Below are positions 5,817 to 48,522 of a stretch of DNA of 64,000 nt, piece after piece. The notes beneath the pieces were generated by a model that had not been told where the DNA came from, searched no databases, and saw only the letters and a program-made list of their open reading frames with translations. The DNA comes from a virus. Position 1 is the stretch's first letter; the number at the start of each line of letters is the position of its first letter. A program made the translations under genes and the position numbers. Location of the stretch: positions 19,780 through 83,779 of IMG/VR virus record IMGVR_UViG_3300044961_000262. One strand, given 5' to 3'.

Positions 5817-6590
5817 TTAAATTTTAATTTCAATTACTTCTCCTTCTGAAGTTAATGTTGTTTTGATTATTAAACAGTTAGGATAAAAGCAATTATTGTT
5901 TAATGAACAACTTGAACCTTCTTCTTTGATACCATTTTTAGTACATTCCATCTGCAAATTAATTACGTCAGGTAGTTTAGGTTGGTTTTTCAGTTTTTCA
6001 GTTAATTCTTCAAAAGTTATTGAATTACCTGATGTTTTCCAATATTCTTGACCGCCTTTCCATATTATTTTAGCTTCTTCTTCTGTATATTTCTTATCAG
6101 AAGATTTAGCTTGGTTGTAAAGCATTGTTGCTAATTTTGTTCTACCATAAAAACAATTGTCACAACCGCAATCTAATTTTGAAAATTCACCATAAGAAGC
6201 TATTTCTTCTTTGTCATACCCAAATTCTTCTGATAAAGTTTCTTTTATTCCATCAGGATTTCTTAAATCATAATAACAAAGGTTAGTTAAAATTTCTTTT
6301 TCAACACTCTGTTCTACAAATTTGATTATAGGTATTGATTTATCAATCAATTTTCCGATTGATGCTATAATTTTAATAGCTCCAAAATTATTCTTTTTAA
6401 GAGGATTATATATCTGAACTGCTTTATTTCCAATAGGGTCAAAAACCCAATTCAGATGTTGTAATTTAGCTTTTGTATCAACAACTACCCAATAATCATC
6501 TACTTTAATAGGTTTTAAATTATCTGATATTTTGCCATTTACAGATACCGCTGCAAATATGTGTTCATTTGGTATTTCTATTACTTTCAT
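5817..6590 (-). CDS. modular hypothetical protein with Cys clusters
   Basis: 257 aa; CGCDNCFYGR and CSLNNNCFYPNC Cys clusters. Confidence 0.65.
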   Translation of the reverse strand: MKVIEIPNEHIFAAVSVNGKISDNLKPIKVDDYWVVVDTKAKLQHLNWVFDPIGNKAVQIYNPLKKNNFGAIKIIASIGKLIDKSIPIIKFVEQSVEKEILTNLCYYDLRNPDGIKETLSEEFGYDKEEIASYGEFSKLDCGCDNCFYGRTKLATMLYNQAKSSDKKYTEEEAKIIWKGGQEYWKTSGNSITFEELTEKLKNQPKLPDVINLQMECTKNGIKEEGSSCSLNNNCFYPNCLIIKTTLTSEGEVIEIKI

Positions 6591-6800
6591 AGTTTTATTT
6601 TAAAGTTTATTTTAAAGAATTTAAATACTCGTACATTTCTTTTGTTTGGGCAAATTTGCAATTTGTAATTAGAAAATATACATCATCATAGCTTGGGTTT
6701 AATGATTTGTAATAATCTAACATATCCCGTGTCTGTGCTTTTGGATAATTTACTATTAATCAGCGTAAATTATTTTTTACGTCTATTGTTATGTGAAATT

Positions 6801-7112
6801 TCAGAACCACCCACAAGAAATCAATTCTACAATAGTTTTTTCACTATTAACGGTATCATATCGCAATATTTTCCATTTTTTTCCTAATGGTTTAGGTAAT
6901 GGGAATTTTAATGTTTTCCAATCTGCACTATTATTACTATTTGCAATGAAATTATTACAAACAGTAACATCACAATTATAAAAATTTTTTGGTATCTCTA
7001 TCTTAATTATTTTGCTTGGCTTCCTAAAGAAACTTCGCACAACATTGGTTTGTGGCAAGTGCGGCTGACGTGGTTTAACCAGATTTAGTAATTCTAATAA
7101 TCTTCTGTACAT
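6801..7112 (-). CDS. hypothetical protein inside attC-like cassette 1
   Basis: Starts in the loop of the 7037-7170 inverted repeat, reads through its left arm (PHLPQTNVVRS), stops next to GTTATGT at 6788. Confidence 0.6.
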   Translation of the reverse strand: MYRRLLELLNLVKPRQPHLPQTNVVRSFFRKPSKIIKIEIPKNFYNCDVTVCNNFIANSNNSADWKTLKFPLPKPLGKKWKILRYDTVNSEKTIVELISCGWF

Positions 7113-7170
7113 ATTTTCAAAATTTGTGTTTCAAAATCTGCACCTGACCACAAGTTAAGTGCCGTTAGTG
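7037..7170 (+). repeat. attC-like recombination site
   Basis: GCACAAC (R'') ... TTGTGGCAAGTGCGG / CTGCACCTGACCACAA imperfect inverted arms ... GTTAGTG (R'). Confidence 0.6.
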
Positions 7171-7171
7171 A

Positions 7172-7453
7172 TCATTTCTTTTTACGTTCTAACCATTCTA
7201 TAAAATATTTCATCGCTGCCCATCCTTCTGCATCGTAATGAAAAGGTGTGTTCCAATCAGACATTTCTTCATCTCTGTATTGTTCTAACAAAGATTTAAT
7301 TTCCGCAAGCAACGAACCGCTAACAGGTTGTTGGCGTAATGTTACTTCCATCTGTCCAATTAAGGTTAGTAAATCATCGTGCTGCCTACCTCTTGCAGTT
7401 TTTACTTGCCCAGTTGCTACCCATTTTCTAAGTATTTCCAAATGTTCTTTCAT
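7172..7453 (-). CDS. hypothetical protein inside attC-like cassette 2
   Basis: Starts in the loop of site 7318-7509, reads through its left arm (TLRQQPVSGS), stop 1 nt from GTTAGTG. Confidence 0.6.
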   Translation of the reverse strand: MKEHLEILRKWVATGQVKTARGRQHDDLLTLIGQMEVTLRQQPVSGSLLAEIKSLLEQYRDEEMSDWNTPFHYDAEGWAAMKYFIEWLERKKK

Positions 7454-7509
7454 TCTATTGTAATTTATCGTTAATAATTCACACTACTCCAACCACCAAC
7501 ACATTAGGT
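7318..7509 (+). repeat. attC-like recombination site (R' degenerate)
   Basis: CGCTAAC ... TTGGCGTAATGT / ACACTACTCCAA (10 of 12 complementary) ... ATTAGGT. Confidence 0.55.
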
Positions 7510-7527
7510 GTAAGTGCTATGACACTG

Positions 7528-7749
7528 CTACCAAGCATCATCTGTAATTCTAACATTTAATTTTATTTTACCATCAGACCATCCAATATCGTGATTTTCT
7601 TTTTTAACCTCACATCTTTGAGTATCTATTGGGTAAGGGTATGCACGTTGCATAAGTTCATTTTTTGGAACTTCTTTTTCCACTTCAATTTCAAAAATAA
7701 AATCATCAGGAATAGATGAAATTAAATCTTTTAATTCTTTGATTGTCAT
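7528..7749 (-). CDS. hypothetical protein in cassette 3
   Basis: MTIKELKDLISSIPDD-type small protein between R' at 7503 and R'' CACTAAC at 7774. Confidence 0.65.
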   Translation of the reverse strand: MTIKELKDLISSIPDDFIFEIEVEKEVPKNELMQRAYPYPIDTQRCEVKKENHDIGWSDGKIKLNVRITDDAW

Positions 7750-7773
7750 TTTCGTTTAATTTACCGCACCAGC

Positions 7774-7800
7774 CACTAACAGCGGTTTGGTGCTATTATT
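7774..7800 (+). repeat. left half of an attC-like site (no right arm found)
   Basis: CACTAACAGCGGTTTGGTGCTATT, similar in style to the left arms at 7037 and 7318. Confidence 0.4.
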
Positions 7801-7949
7801 TTACCTAACTTTCTTCTTGCGGATAAGAACTAATATCGGCAAAAATTCTTTTACCATCAGTGCTTACTCTTAATCTTTCTTCGCTTGGAATATGTATTTC
7901 CATTTTCTTATTTATTTAAGTTGTTAAAAATTCATTTAAAAAGGGCGGC

Positions 7950-8044
7950 GTATAACGGTGGCTAAAATAAATTGTAGCATTTGTTTTTAGATTGAAGTTT
8001 TAGATCTCCAAAACCCTAACTTCTTTAGCCGTAAAAAATTAGCG
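7950..8044 (+). repeat. attC-like recombination site (R' degenerate)
   Basis: GTATAAC GGTGGCTAAAATAA ... TTCTTTAGCCG ... ATTAGCG. Confidence 0.5.
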
Positions 8045-8050
8045 ACAAAG

Positions 8051-8315
8051 CTATACAACCTTCCAACTATCAATTCTAACTAAATATTTCCTTTATATAA
8101 ATTTTCCATAAATCTTCAATTCCACCATCATTATCTCTACCTCTTTCAACACGTCTATCCATAAAATACATTTTACCTTTATATAACCTCACATTAGATT
8201 GAATTGAAGATGTATTCTTCGTAATCTATATAATGAAATTAACTGTATCATTATTAACATCAGATATATTCAAGTTTTCTTGGTTTTCTTTGAAACTTTT
8301 TATTTTATTTTTCAT
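8051..8315 (-). pseudogene. decayed cassette ORF
   Basis: MKNKIKSFKENQENLNISDVNNDTVNFII*ITKNTSS...LWKIYIK, then a frame change to KYLVRIDSWKVV* ending 6 nt from ATTAGCG. LNISDV is the antisense read of an R''-like TATTAAC at 8252. Confidence 0.4.
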
Positions 8316-8338
8316 TTTTAATTTTATTTACTAATAAT

Positions 8339-8370
8339 AAAAAAAAGAAGTATCCGAAGATACTTCTTTT
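8339..8370 (-). terminator. intrinsic terminator downstream of tmRNA
   Basis: GAAGTATC-TTCG-GATACTTC followed by T8 on the minus strand. Confidence 0.8.
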
Positions 8371-8412
8371 CCACCTTTTAATCTAATCAAGCATATGACA
8401 AAATTTGATTTG

Positions 8413-8790
8413 TGGAGATGTGGGGAATTGAACCCCAGTCCAGATAACTGCTATATAACAACTTTTATTACATGCTTAAATCTAATATTTCTATTTGATT
8501 AGTATTAAGCTTAACTGAAATTAAGCTTCACCAGTTAATCTTTAATATTATTATACTCCTAATAGATTAACAAACTTGGGAGTGAAAATTAAGCAGCTAA
8601 AACTACTTCTTTTTCTGCAACAGGAGCAAAAGCAATTACCATTGCTTCTACTTTATCAGCAAAAGTCCTAGACTCGTCTGATATATTGTTATTGTTTGCA
8701 TTTGTTTTTTGATAGTAATTTAGATGTAATCTATCATCCATCGCATGATTGTTATAAGGCTAAACGTTACTGTCAAATCCTGTCATCCCC
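8413..8790 (-). ncRNA. ssrA: tmRNA (378 nt), tag ORF 8699-8589: ANNNNISDESRTFADKVEAMVIAFAPVAEKEVVLAA*
   Basis: 5' GGGGATGACAGGATTTGACAG; 3' T arm GGGGTTCAATTCCCC plus CATCTCC-A; acceptor stem has the G3:U alanine wobble; GCA resume codon and LAA C-terminus. Confidence 0.93.
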
Positions 8791-16210: not shown

Positions 16211-16549
16211 TTACATTTGGACAATAAGTTGTGTGCCGAATACAGAAGCGGCTTTCGCAAATTCAGTTGCTGAACCTGCACCGTCAAACGATTTGAATTC
16301 CATAGATTGTTTCAAACGTGTAACAGTTTCGCCTTTAAGAAACAACGGTTTACCGTCTTTTAACGTTTTAGAGTCGTTTTGGGCTATAAATTTGTCGCCA
16401 ACTTCGTTGATAACGATAGACACGATACGTGCTCCATTATTTGAAGTGTCGCCATTAGCCCAAACGGTTCCGTTAGGTGTTTCGATAGCGGTTTTGCCCA
16501 ATTTTTCGATAAAACGTTGGGCAATAATTGGTTGATTTTCAAATTTCAT
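16211..16549 (-). CDS. first gene of the leftward arm, hypothetical
   Basis: Likely start MKFENQ at 16549; locally GC-richer codon usage. Confidence 0.65.
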   Translation of the reverse strand: MKFENQPIIAQRFIEKLGKTAIETPNGTVWANGDTSNNGARIVSIVINEVGDKFIAQNDSKTLKDGKPLFLKGETVTRLKQSMEFKSFDGAGSATEFAKAASVFGTQLIVQM

Positions 16550-16838
16550 AATGATAGAATTAAAAGGTTGAAGAATAAGATACGGGTAACATCCCCGCAA
16601 AATTGGAGAGGGGGATCTTTGTATGACCTAGAACACATTCACATATTTTTCTCAAAAAAAAAATTCCAAAAAAAAATTTTTAAAAAATAAGCATGTTCAA
16701 AACGCAAACATCTAACTCTCTGATAATCATTCAGAAACGTAACGAAAATTTGCTATATATATTCTCTATAATTTGACAAGATTTCTCTCTGAATATCAAC
16801 AACTTAACACTTTCCTTTTTGAACATTGTTCATTTTAT

Positions 16839-45538: not shown

Positions 45539-48522
45539 AGAAAAAAAGCTTAAATAAATTTCCAGAAGGTGGAAAAATTAAATCTATTATGAAAAGAAAA
45601 TTACCTAAACATCAAAATGGCGCACTTGTCGGTCAAGTTGCGGGAACAGCAATTGGAGCATCTACAGCTGCAATTCCTGTAGTCGGTCCTTTTGTAGCTC
45701 CAATGTTAACTCCTATTTTATCGCAAGTAGGGTCTAAATTAGGAGACCAGGTTTCTGGAGATGAAGCTAAAAGAAAAAGAGATGAAGAAACTAATAAGAA
45801 TCTAATGCAATCTTATCAGAAATTAAATACTGTCAATAATCCTAATTCTACTAGAGTTAATACTGGTTCTAATTTTCAATTTCCATACGGAGGAGAAATA
45901 ACTGAAGATATGATAAACCCTAATGCTGAATTAGAATTAGAAGAAACTTTTCAAACACCTGACGGAACAGTTGGTCAAGTAAATGCGCCAAGTCATGAAG
46001 AAGGAGGAATTGAAGTAAATCTTCCTGAAGGTACTAGAGTTTTTAGCGATAGACTAAAATATAAAGGTAAAACTTTCGCTAAATTAACTAAACCTATTAA
46101 TTCTAAAATAGCTAAAATAGAAAAGCAATTAGAAAGTAATCCTATGGATTATCGTAAAAAAAATTCATTAACTCTTTTAAATCAACAACTTGATCATTAT
46201 TTTAATATACAAGAAGCTTCAAAAAAACAAGCTGAAACAAAACGTAGTTTAAATACTATGCGCAAAGGAGGATTGATTAAATATAATTTGGGAGGAGGTA
46301 CTCCACCAGATCCGTTTAATAATCCTGTAGAATACCAAGTTTGGTTAAATAATCAACCGAAATCTTTAGTTCAAAATCAATTACAAGAAAATGCTATTAT
46401 TCCTACTAATGATAATTATTTGATTAAAGGACAACCTAGAAATTTTGATCGGTCGGTAAATAATAATCCAACTTTTAAAAATAATTCTATTGCTACCGAT
46501 ATTAATAATGATAATAATAATAATTTTCAGAATAATAATCAAAATCAAGTAAACAATTGGACTAATTTTGCTCAAAGAACCATTCAGCCTCAATTAACTG
46601 AAATGGACCCTAATCAATTAACTAATCAACCTGCTTCAACTGTAACTTTTGAAGACACGGCTCAACCGACTACATCTACATCGTCTACTAAAAATTCTTG
46701 GGCTAATAAAAATATAGGTAATATAGGTCAAATTGGATCGGCTATTGGAACTAATATTGCTCAAAATATTAATTTAAATAGAGTTAAAGCTCCAAGAAGT
46801 ATTAATCCTATATCAACAGCTAGTAAAGTTATGGCTCCTCAAAAAGTTAACTTTTCAGCTAACATTGATGCTATTAATAGACAAACAATGGGGGATTACG
46901 AAGATATTAATAGAAGTTTCGCTAATTCAGCTACAGCTAGAGCTTTTAAAAATAAAGCTAGATTAAATCAAGCAGCTAATGTTGGACAAGTATATCAAAA
47001 TCAAGAAAATACAAATACTCAAATTGAAAATAACTATCGAAATTTATTAGGTAAAGCTATGGGTCAAGACGTAATGTCTAATATGGAAATTGATAGATAT
47101 AATCTTGAAAATAAATATAATTATGATTTGTGGAGAACCGGAGCTAAAAACAAAATGATTGCAGATTTAGGAAATACTTCAGGACAATTATTTGGAAAGA
47201 TGACTGACTTTAATAATCAATTAAGTCTAGCTAATATTCTTGCTAATCAATATGATAGTTCCGTAATAGCTGATCAAATTGCTGGTAATAAACAACTCGC
47301 TGATATATACTTAGCTCAAGGTAAAATTTCTCAAAAAGATTACGATAGAATTAAACATACTTTCGCTTGCGGAGGAACAATTAGAAGTTTACGTAAATTT
47401 CCTAACGGAGGAAATATAAATAATGAATATCGTAAAAAATTACAAACAGTTATTAATGAAGAAACAATAAATAACGCTCAATTAATGGATGATGAATATG
47501 CTGCTGCTTTAGAATCAGGTAAAGATAAATATACATCTTCTGTTACTGGTTTAGATTATAAAGTTTTACCTAAAGCTGAAAAACATCTATTAGCCGCTAA
47601 TATGTGGAAAGAAACTCATGGAACAGCTCCAACTAAAAAACAAGAAGAAGCTACTGTAAAAGCTATTGAAGGTAAAGCTACTGGTTCTACTAAAGCTAAA
47701 ATAGTTGCTGAAACAGTAAATAACGGTAAGACTATGGCAGATATTGTAAACAGTAAATGGTCAAACCAAAAACCTGAAGGATACGTTAGTAAGCAACAAT
47801 TACCTATTAATCAATCTAACGATCAATTTAATTGGAGAGAATTCGCTAAAAGTCAAGGTGCTCAATTAATAGATGCTGTAGGAAGCTTAGGTCTTTCGGC
47901 AATAGGTAATCCTTTATATCATGAATTTGGAGTTGATTTATCTGAATACGGAATTCCTCATACTGATTTAAGTCGAGAAGCTGTTGATGAAAAGGTAAAA
48001 AATCCTAATGAATATGCTGATGCTGCTTCAAATGCAATGTTAGGTATTATGACAGGAAAATTAGCGGGAATGGGAGCGAATCAAATAGTAAAATCTGCGA
48101 TTCCTAAACCAAAACCTAAATATTATAAAAATAATGAAGTTGATGAATTACTTTTAAAACAAAAAACAAAAGTCGGTAAAAATTCATATAAAGGACGTCA
48201 AAATAAAACTAATGAAAAAAATCTTGATTACTGGAACGATTATCAATCATTGGAATTTGCATTAAAAAGAAAATCTCCAGAATTTCAAAAAAAATTAACT
48301 AATAGAATTTCTAAAATGGAAGATGAAAATCTACCAAATGATTTATTAAATTTCAAATTAGATAATTATGAAATTCCTTCTTTTCAACAATTAAAACTGA
48401 AAGAAATGGGAAAAGATTTACAAAAAGCTAAAAACGAAGGAAATATTGTACAATATGCTGAAATACTAAAAGAAATGCAAAAATATATAAAATCTTTTCA
48501 AAAAAAGCGTTCTTTAAAATAA
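45535..48522 (+). CDS. virion cargo (ejection) protein 1
   Basis: Hydrophobic Gly/Ala N-terminal segment, SHEEGG motif, repeated xxxGG motifs, Asn/Gln-rich linker. Confidence 0.6.
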   Translation: MKKKSLNKFPEGGKIKSIMKRKLPKHQNGALVGQVAGTAIGASTAAIPVVGPFVAPMLTPILSQVGSKLGDQVSGDEAKRKRDEETNKNLMQSYQKLNTVNNPNSTRVNTGSNFQFPYGGEITEDMINPNAELELEETFQTPDGTVGQVNAPSHEEGGIEVNLPEGTRVFSDRLKYKGKTFAKLTKPINSKIAKIEKQLESNPMDYRKKNSLTLLNQQLDHYFNIQEASKKQAETKRSLNTMRKGGLIKYNLGGGTPPDPFNNPVEYQVWLNNQPKSLVQNQLQENAIIPTNDNYLIKGQPRNFDRSVNNNPTFKNNSIATDINNDNNNNFQNNNQNQVNNWTNFAQRTIQPQLTEMDPNQLTNQPASTVTFEDTAQPTTSTSSTKNSWANKNIGNIGQIGSAIGTNIAQNINLNRVKAPRSINPISTASKVMAPQKVNFSANIDAINRQTMGDYEDINRSFANSATARAFKNKARLNQAANVGQVYQNQENTNTQIENNYRNLLGKAMGQDVMSNMEIDRYNLENKYNYDLWRTGAKNKMIADLGNTSGQLFGKMTDFNNQLSLANILANQYDSSVIADQIAGNKQLADIYLAQGKISQKDYDRIKHTFACGGTIRSLRKFPNGGNINNEYRKKLQTVINEETINNAQLMDDEYAAALESGKDKYTSSVTGLDYKVLPKAEKHLLAANMWKETHGTAPTKKQEEATVKAIEGKATGSTKAKIVAETVNNGKTMADIVNSKWSNQKPEGYVSKQQLPINQSNDQFNWREFAKSQGAQLIDAVGSLGLSAIGNPLYHEFGVDLSEYGIPHTDLSREAVDEKVKNPNEYADAASNAMLGIMTGKLAGMGANQIVKSAIPKPKPKYYKNNEVDELLLKQKTKVGKNSYKGRQNKTNEKNLDYWNDYQSLEFALKRKSPEFQKKLTNRISKMEDENLPNDLLNFKLDNYEIPSFQQLKLKEMGKDLQKAKNEGNIVQYAEILKEMQKYIKSFQKKRSLK

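Follow-up and report, generated by a model that had tools for sequence, protein, structure and literature searches.

We analysed a window of 64,000 nucleotides of viral DNA, bases 19780–83779 of the 83,779-bp IMG/VR record IMGVR_UViG_3300044961_000262 (named G000), and describe a row of about four small cassettes on its minus strand, at window positions 6788–8045. The row is very probably a fixed, decaying and integrase-less array of the integron type, carried by an 83.8-kb genome without a tyrosine recombinase, and it represents an old copy, mutating and without a recombinase, of a system whose better-preserved examples lie elsewhere. A preliminary description of this DNA, made from the sequence alone, had proposed an array of attC-like sites without an integrase and with a link to Bacteroidota. 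Both proposals hold: the sites have homologs in a family that also fills arrays in Flavobacterium chromosomes, and no match to PF00589 was obtained over the whole 83,779-bp record, with a control search that matched in 14 of 14 genomes. One full and one half site with clear homologs, together with two candidates, lie within 1.3 kb of each other with no integrase, which is the composition of a cluster of attC sites lacking an integron-integrase (CALIN; at least two close attC sites, no integrase).

Sites of the cassette row and their relatives

Every gene between about 4.7 and 16.5 kb of the window lies on the minus strand, and the sites are therefore read on the minus (coding) strand. The strongest sequence match belongs to the half site at 7774–7807, the first of the two site classes that we call a and e: the segment 7737–7798 was matched at 52.6 bits and an E-value of 3.4e-15 (nhmmer). 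When the window was compared with isolate phages by distant blastn, the sole matching segment was 7731–7797. In 20 Flavobacterium Muminvirus records, this segment corresponds to intergenic sequence that lies upstream of a DNA methyltransferase gene. A 17-mer taken from this segment, with one position left free, gave at least 120 matches in IMG/VR viral contigs, with conserved flanks that reach far past the pattern. Among species-representative genomes many of the 17-mer matches are due to chance, as expected for 596 Gb; in Flavobacterium genomes the motif lies in multi-copy repeats of ~158 nt. Leftward extension revealed that every copy of the motif is the right arm of a longer element, which starts with nnnTAAC^G and ends with ...CTG^TTAnnn (the caret marks the breakpoint). 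We collected 112 distinct full-length sites, which fall into size classes of ~76, 92 and 96 nt in phage contigs and ~158 nt in chromosomes. The right arm of this collection is fixed by the search pattern, so that unbiased information comes only from the left arm, from the loop and from the position left free.

Alignment of 88 short sites indicates that the two arms form a long imperfect helix (99.4% paired), with compensatory changes at 4 of 15 helix pairs, each in 16–20 sequences. The covariation score is 0.161 against 0.074 in shuffles, none of 500 shuffles reaches this value, and slid partners score at most 0.056. The TAAC/GTTA cores pair in 81–88 of the 88 sites, and the three variable box positions beside them in only 26, 32 and 54, as is expected if the bases past G^TT belong to the next cassette. 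The sites further display an unpaired central spacer, extrahelical bases on one arm and a variable terminal loop, and a class-a copy folds as DNA with z-scores of -4.8 and -4.4 on the two strands. The class-a leader is near-identical up to the ATG in about 20 contigs, each of which has different open reading frames (ORFs) behind it, and methyltransferase genes are found behind sites of the Flavobacteriia family. Earlier interpretations of the motif as a sigma-54/Bacteroidetes promoter, an antitermination box, a transfer RNA fragment or a CRISPR repeat were dropped once the left halves of the sites had been seen, and that of a conserved peptide because the reading frames differ between copies.

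A covariance model (R1), built solely from short and mostly phage-derived copies, detects 7–10 same-strand sites per 5–8 kb in five Flavobacterium loci (E-values 7e-9 to 0.025). These matches, together with the box complementarity described below, identify the loci as integron-type cassette arrays. The loci in question (L228, L187, L210, L164 and L165) are dense one-strand arrays with sites of ~135–170 nt; by eye, this long site class has a local GC hairpin followed by a T run, and a TAnnTTTG-like box on the ORF strand. As far as homology can place them, sites of the family thus occur both in many Flavobacteriia-type phages and in dense Flavobacterium chromosome arrays. Intact family sites stand before DNA methyltransferase genes in the cultured Flavobacterium Muminvirus isolates L001 and L002, and the same methyltransferase cassette is preceded by differing left boxes in three Muminvirus species; the isolates are a ready experimental system.

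Contigs assembled in Logan from four hot-spring or microbial-mat metagenome runs, one of which may be where this DNA came from, were aligned to window 6400–8500; being contigs and not reads, they inform on presence only. At 7807, where the window copy of the class-a site diverges, they carry on with an intact class-a loop. The half site reported at 7774 is therefore real, on the grounds of its profile match and of the intact site in these metagenome contigs.

The full-length site at 7043–7167 represents class e. A tblastn match led to the contig L021, and a subsequent 19-mer search to 11 homologous copies in other viral contigs. The copies share ~127 nt, from TAAC^G to ...CAATG^TT, and their flanks differ on both sides. 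The window site is ~93% identical to the L021 copy and diverges from it immediately past GTT; over the 12 class-e copies, nine different cassettes follow the G of GTT. The end-to-end alignment with this site class confirms the unit that had been delimited at 7037–7170. RNAalifold predicts 23 pairs around a loop of ~73 nt. The L021 copy folds with -19.9 kcal/mol (z = -3.0) versus -13.5 kcal/mol for the window copy, in which two to three pairs are broken; its arms still pair in the minimum-energy fold of 7033–7174, yet z is only -0.49. Chimeric sites were observed in L249 (4466–4598) and L257 (5016–5146), where a foreign left arm precedes the class-e leader, N-module and right arm, and in L256 the left arm is missing; the chimeras suggest that exchange may take place within sites as well.

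The other two units of the row are much less clear. The long site at 7324–7511 has arms that pair over 5–6 bp only, with a fold z-score of -0.14 to -0.31; its leader part gives an nhmmer E-value of only 14, an exact-word scan with a 19-mer returned 0 matches, and no homolog was found when the DNA of the relatives of its N-module was sought in viral and genome contigs. The unit described at 7318–7509 thus holds at the protein level, where a seam falls at its GTT, and is weak at the DNA level. Its status as a site would have to be called weak overall, the protein modularity speaking for it and the DNA-level evidence being poor. The candidate at 7949–8045 aligns with R1 over its full length, at 12.9 bits and an E-value of 0.89, with a fold z-score of +0.57, and no homolog of an 18-mer from it was found. 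Of the unit placed at 7950–8044, then, a weak candidate for an attC site is what is left. Decay of the window copies, which had also been pointed out, is evident in the two TAAT cores at 7324–7511 and 7949–8045, in the truncated site at 7774–7807 with its deleted left end, and in lost stem stability; the AAC/GTT cores are both present at 7043–7167.

At the downstream end of the row, the box at 6788–6796 is not followed by an attC body (z = -0.59), and a related contig stays homologous down to 6765. The half site noted at 6788 is the end box belonging to the cassette with its start at 7042. At the opposite end, the half site proposed at 8252 had to be abandoned, as homology to an intact relative runs straight over its GTT. 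The gene in which it lies (8076–8315, minus strand, 80 codons) has a single in-frame TAG where its 109-amino acid homolog P0050 has Trp, and is indeed the pseudogene it was taken for. A domain of ~50 amino acids from this gene occurs twice in tandem in the 709-amino acid protein P0049.

Cassettes, start codons and junctions

In integrons, the first bases of a cassette (TTRRRY) complement the inverse core of the same cassette. The cassettes of the present family have a comparable form, a short ORF body between the inverted boxes GTTAnnnn ... nnnnTAAC. In the Flavobacterium locus L228, the left box is the exact reverse complement of the right box of the preceding site at 4 of 4 consecutive sites. 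Downstream of the class-e sites, the 9-nt start box is exactly reverse-complemented at the end of the ORF in 7 of 11 cassettes, with one mismatch in one and with two mismatches in three. The start and end boxes of the cassette in contig L259 are exactly complementary, and those of the window cassettes C and D are near-complementary only, the end box matching the reverse complement of the start box at 7 of 9 positions in each (for the 6788–6796 box of cassette D, alternatively 8 of 10 by eye). In L259 the body of cassette C extends from G^TTAGCGG to ACCGCTAAC^G between other site bodies, and the TAA of the end box is its stop codon.

Relatives of the row diverge at G^TT and also at TAAC^G. An ORF body can be followed by any of three different site bodies (L021, L251 and L257), and can also stand between site bodies that differ on both sides (the window and L259); in one comparison between hosts, the downstream site moves together with its segment. 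Loose ends of the Logan contigs fall at four positions: at 7041 other cassettes stand behind G^TT (one contig in X1 and two in X9), at 7167 a different end box precedes TAAC, at 7777 a different cassette lies behind the half site, and 7807 is the truncation point of that half site. Differences in gene content do break at the G^TT boxes, as had been anticipated, in the flanks of relatives, at protein seams and at contig ends. The coordinates of all features are collected in Table 1.

Table 1 Features of the cassette row, in window coordinates
Feature	Position	Strand	Details
Candidate diverged attC	7949-8045	-	TAAT left core; 7-bp GGCTAAA/TTTAGCC stem; R' box GTTATACG
Cassette A	7805-7952	-	Start box TTATACGC...; 32-amino acid ORF 7903-7805; boundaries by eye
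Truncated class-a attC, right arm and R' box (GTTAGTGG)	7774-7807	-	Left arm and loop deleted
Cassette B	7528-7773	-	Class-a-like leader 7773-7750, then 73-amino acid ORF 7749-7528
attC-like site 2, long, degenerate	7324-7511	-	Left core TAAT 7507-7503; G of GTT 7324
Cassette C	7164-7323	-	Start box TTAGCGGT...; end box ...ATCACTAAC; C-module of ORF 7172-7453
attC-type site, class e, full length	7043-7167	-	TAAC 7167-7164; G of GTT at 7043
Cassette D, ORF body (C-module VRSFF...GWF)	6801-7042	-	Without own ATG; begins with TT of GTT 7041-7043
End box of cassette D, R''-type ...CATAAC	6788-6796	-	7 nt past ORF stop

The row has about one small ORF per interval, and the ORFs end a few nucleotides from an AAC box, in line with the preliminary description. 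Two of the ORFs start within a site and translate one of its arms, as seen from the peptides HLPQTNVVRS and RQQPVSGS in their translations. The central loop of the class-e site contains an A-rich leader and an ATG at 7112–7110, from which ~23 codons run through the loop and the right arm, with GTT read as Val. In all 11 evaluable class-e copies, the frame of this internal ATG stays open for 46–80 codons beyond the junction, and the other two frames mostly close within 0–11 codons (exceptions 35, 71, 71 and 37). The C-module of cassette D (ORF 6801–7112) recurs in 10 other proteins with at least 5 different N-terminal parts, joined at the seam V^(V/M)RSFF. The site at 7324–7511 similarly contains an ATG at 7453–7451 and an N-module of 43 codons. 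The ORF that starts there (7172–7453, 93 amino acids) is a two-part mosaic with its seam at V-SGS, encoded by G^TT AGC GGT: the first 43 residues are found again in six proteins, all differing in their C-terminal part, and the last 50 (SGSLLAEIK...WLERKKK) in many proteins, among which at least 8 different N-terminal parts occur. No match was obtained for the cassette ORFs in PHROGs and Pfam, and none to any family for the 73-amino acid ORF of cassette B.

These features suggest that the two sites may act as expression modules, each providing an N-terminal peptide module together with an ATG and an A-rich leader. The reading frame would pass through the right arm, with GTT as Val, and continue into a cassette body without its own ATG; translation would often stop at the TAA of the end box. 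The sites would in this way supply a translation start and an N-terminal module to start-less cassettes.

Recombinase, orientation and rival readings

Each of four host genomes encodes a tyrosine recombinase of 356–381 amino acids that is the best match to the integron-integrase model. The gene is 550–680 nt away from the sites in two of the four and located at a contig end in the third, and recombinase and sites are convergent. The best solved relative of this enzyme is VchIntIA, and as the alignment skips VchIntIA residues 199–242, the host recombinase is without the IntI-specific insertion. The additional domain of IntI contacts the extrahelical bases of attC, and measured by what IntI uses in attC recombination the best host candidate falls short. 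Homologs with 38–44% identity to the Flavobacterium enzyme are encoded in four phage loci (L101, 10104–11419; L048, 6030–7162; L249; and L007), and in L101 and L048 the gene lies directly behind an attC-type site, on the same strand.

According to Nivina et al. 2016 (PMC5027507), IntI cleaves the bottom strand within its 5'-AAC-3'; in that strand the arm facing this triplet carries the extrahelical bases, and recombination of the top strand inverts the cassette. In both site classes of the present family, AAC and the extra unpaired bases share one arm on the minus strand of the window. The minus strand is thus the top strand, the one not recombined, by the published structural rule, and the phage ORFs, which are on the minus strand, have the usual sense. 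The preliminary description had the ORFs opposite to the usual cassette orientation; it read the palindromic sites on the plus strand and so arrived at the reverse conclusion. In the host arrays, 37 of 39 gaps between sites have their longest ORF on the opposite strand; in one gap it is on the same strand, and one gap has none: it is the host chromosomal arrays, and not the phage row, that are inverted. A conserved G-T wobble on the top strand, present in 87 of 88 copies, runs contrary to the published trend. This assignment of polarity is provisional, since the enzyme differs from a classical IntI and since breakpoints are seen at either end of the ORF body.

The history of the row may be pictured as follows. 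A tyrosine recombinase supplied in trans would have inserted the cassettes, acting on a folded single strand; candidate enzymes are the Xer/IntI-like recombinases encoded in some related phage contigs and next to the host arrays. Following insertion, the sites would have mutated, by changes from TAAC to TAAT, by one deletion and by the breakage of stem pairs, and the row is consequently now probably immobile. Capture from a host, mobilisation in trans and a role as early accessory genes, all three put forward in the preliminary description, may apply. A further and more tentative possibility, which is plausible without being the likelier case, is that the family is a separate platform of Flavobacteriia and their phages, with a Xer-like enzyme without the IntI insertion, recombination of either strand, coding sites, and start-less bodies spliced in frame at G^TT and ended by the TAA of their own end box. 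Recombination of either strand would explain the breakpoints at both GTT and AAC as well as the sense ORFs of phages and antisense ORFs of hosts.

Several observations weigh against an integron-type origin. On folding as attC hairpins, a check proposed at the outset, the DNA of the window units does no better than shuffles (z = -0.59 to +0.57), in contrast to z-scores of -4.8 and -3.0 for intact relatives. A single site, 7774–7807, passes a sequence threshold alone, and those at 7324–7511 and 7949–8045 have a TAAT core and yielded no DNA homolog in the searches made. The best R1 score in the region has an E-value of only 0.89, and comparable scores were obtained for probable chance matches at 47883 and 16357. 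The invariance of the right arm in the family is an ascertainment effect of the search pattern. Breakpoints at the TAAC^G end are unpredicted by the classical single-strand model, as is the swapping of sites on both sides of one ORF body by a one-end integron crossover, and the foreign or missing left arms in L249, L257 and L256 fit shuffling by homology. Cassette D has a GTG right after GTT (ATG in relatives), which is a possible start of its own. The host recombinase scores 209 bits against TIGR02249, where the cut-off is 265 bits, and is tied with XerA; it is without the IntI-specific insertion, and in the fourth host genome no site lies within 1.2 kb of its gene. In the window itself, a direct-repeat search of 6500–8600 detected no repeat family, R1 returned nothing over the whole genome at E ≤ 10, and a filter-free search of the window gave weak matches only. 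In the absence of a repeat family within the window and with folds like those of shuffles, the support comes from relatives and not from the window alone. The R1 match at 16357–16479 (plus strand, 12.8 bits) has well-formed TAACG and CGTTAGG ends; it falls within an ORF of the minus strand and is probably due to chance. Outside the window, G000 16785–16828 (minus strand) gives a sub-threshold match to the cassette start-box and leader profile (E = 1.1) and may be a remnant.

Could everything beyond the two sites with clear homologs, that is 7324–7511, 7949–8045, 6788 and 8252, be a matter of chance AAC and GTT in AT-rich DNA? Fold z-scores near zero, sub-threshold matches to R1 and to the hidden Markov models (HMMs), 0 matches in two exact-word scans and the loss of the 8252 site would all agree with this. 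We consider it unlikely nonetheless: of 17 HMM matches in 2 x 83.8 kb, three further and sub-threshold ones lie on the same strand within 1 kb (one of the sub-threshold matches, at 7956–7918 with E = 4.9, covers the R' box and leader of cassette A), the protein seams fall exactly at the GTT codons of 7324 and 7043, and the 6788 box stands 7 nt past a stop codon and nearly complements the start box. Another reading is that of mobile regulatory cassettes, consisting of a leader, a start codon and a stem-loop, that are shuffled by homologous recombination, the AAC and GTT being incidental. Leaders are conserved up to the ATG before many different ORFs, the class-e leader and N-module are better conserved than the left arm, which is replaced or lost in the chimeric copies, and either side of an ORF body can be a breakpoint, as such shuffling would have it. 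It does not account for divergence exactly past GTT with no shared homology beyond, for the exact box complementarity (7 of 11 for class e and 4 of 4 in L228), which homologous exchange does not make, for stems that covary, or for host arrays with 7–10 same-strand sites per 5–8 kb beside a tyrosine recombinase, and we regard it as distinctly improbable.

The hairpins might, finally, act chiefly in RNA, as terminators, processing sites or stabilisers between early genes, and have spread by selection for that role. Intact relatives do have stable intergenic hairpins on the coding strand, and the G-T wobble on that strand (87 of 88) favours folding of it or of its RNA. No T run is found behind the stems, however, two of the window sites are translated and not intergenic, no Rfam family matches there, and neither the box complementarity nor the breakpoints are explained. 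A role in RNA is compatible with an integron-type origin and not exclusive of it; as the principal explanation it is very improbable. The integron-type array, in decay, remains the best account of the row. Most observations of the preliminary description stand and its attC reading was right in kind; the orientation and the 8252 site do not stand, and two of its units are weak in DNA.

Setting in the phage genome and relation to known systems

The genome has a G+C content of 27.8% and a completeness of 93% by CheckV. Bases 1–200 recur at 83580–83779, and this overlap of ~200 bp at the ends indicates that the assembly is circular or terminally redundant despite its linear label. Its genes include those for a large terminase, a portal protein and a major head protein. 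The terminase is nearest to those of crAss-like phages of Bacteroides, Flavobacterium and Cellulophaga, with 32–34% identity, and the virus is a distant crAss-like phage. Close phage relatives were sought for synteny through a 156-amino acid neighbour protein, and none was found. The cassette row lies within the leftward, replication-side gene block. Its G+C content is 0.32–0.45 across 7000–7800 as compared with ~0.25 in the flanks. GCAC...GTGC hairpins occur at 4 sites in the genome, 3 of which are in the region of the row, and a genome-wide count of simple GCAC...GTGC hairpins revealed no enrichment (8 versus 4.1 ± 2.7 in shuffles). ARAGORN called nothing in the region and Rfam gave no family match in the row. 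The sole Rfam match is a full-length transfer-messenger RNA gene directly upstream of the row (8410–8790, minus strand; RF00023, 92.2 bits, E = 1.4e-34), which was missed by ARAGORN.

Sedentary chromosomal integrons carry homogeneous attC sites, such as the Vibrio cholerae repeats. The present system is similar to them in that the start of a cassette complements its own inverse core and in the dense same-strand arrays of the hosts. It differs from them in a candidate recombinase without the equivalent of VchIntIA residues 199–242, in host ORFs that are antisense to the site polarity (37 of 39 gaps), in the convergence of recombinase and sites and in breakpoints at both ends of the ORF body. 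The likeness extends to the site itself, as described in the available part of Nivina et al. 2016 (PMC5027507): a folded AAC/GTT hairpin with an unpaired spacer, extra bases on one arm and a variable loop. For Bacteroidetes, the portion of the IntegronFinder 2.0 survey at hand (PMC9024848) records only a Salinibacter integron and In0 elements.

CALINs of phages have been published, 17 of them having been found by IntegronFinder or HattCI in 10,705 isolate genomes, and insertion dependent on IntI1 took place at 5 of 6 phage CALIN sites tested, as given in the accessible text of Qi et al. 2023 (PMC9892861). Like these, the row described here is an integrase-less row of attC sites with small cassettes in a phage of virulent type. 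One of their cases, Polaribacter phage P12002L, has a Flavobacteriia host and methyltransferase cassettes, as are found behind sites of the present family; the accessible text contains 0 mentions of Flavobacterium or Bacteroidetes (Qi et al. 2023, PMC9892861). Unlike the CALINs in that part of their paper, the family described here goes with a Xer-like recombinase from which the IntI insertion is missing, occurs far more widely among metagenomic phage contigs and includes sites that appear to bear start codons. Phage CALINs are thus already known; in the titles and abstracts searched, we found no description of Flavobacterium attC arrays, of a recombinase without the IntI insertion or of attC sites bearing start codons, and the Flavobacteriia family and its putative coding sites would be new in this respect.

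Two other systems invite comparison. The short ORF of attI1 lets a cassette be translated from signals that lie outside it. As there, a recombination site would here give translation-start signals to a cassette that has none; unlike attI1, it is attC itself that appears to carry an ATG and 23–43 codons, in frame with the cassette body (in 11 of 11 class-e copies). For the promoter-early stem-loop modules of T4-type phages, shuffling by homology has been proposed. In both cases a plastic region of a lytic phage contains small and variable early genes with short conserved intergenic modules on either side; the T4-type modules are not known to show AAC/GTT cores, box complementarity or host arrays beside a recombinase.

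Integrons have been treated as essentially proteobacterial devices, and published surveys have met with next to none in Bacteroidetes. The window shows the fate of such sites when the recombinase can no longer be reached: mutations arise in them, one has been truncated, and the peptides that they encode become fixed in phage genes. If the reading is true, Flavobacterium chromosomes and many unrelated phages, a crAss-like one included, would draw on one pool of small accessory genes. Sites with a start codon and an N-module would give recombination sites a new means of controlling expression and of assembling fusion proteins, and if start-less bodies are spliced at G^TT, recombination would shuffle the N-termini of proteins as well as genes.

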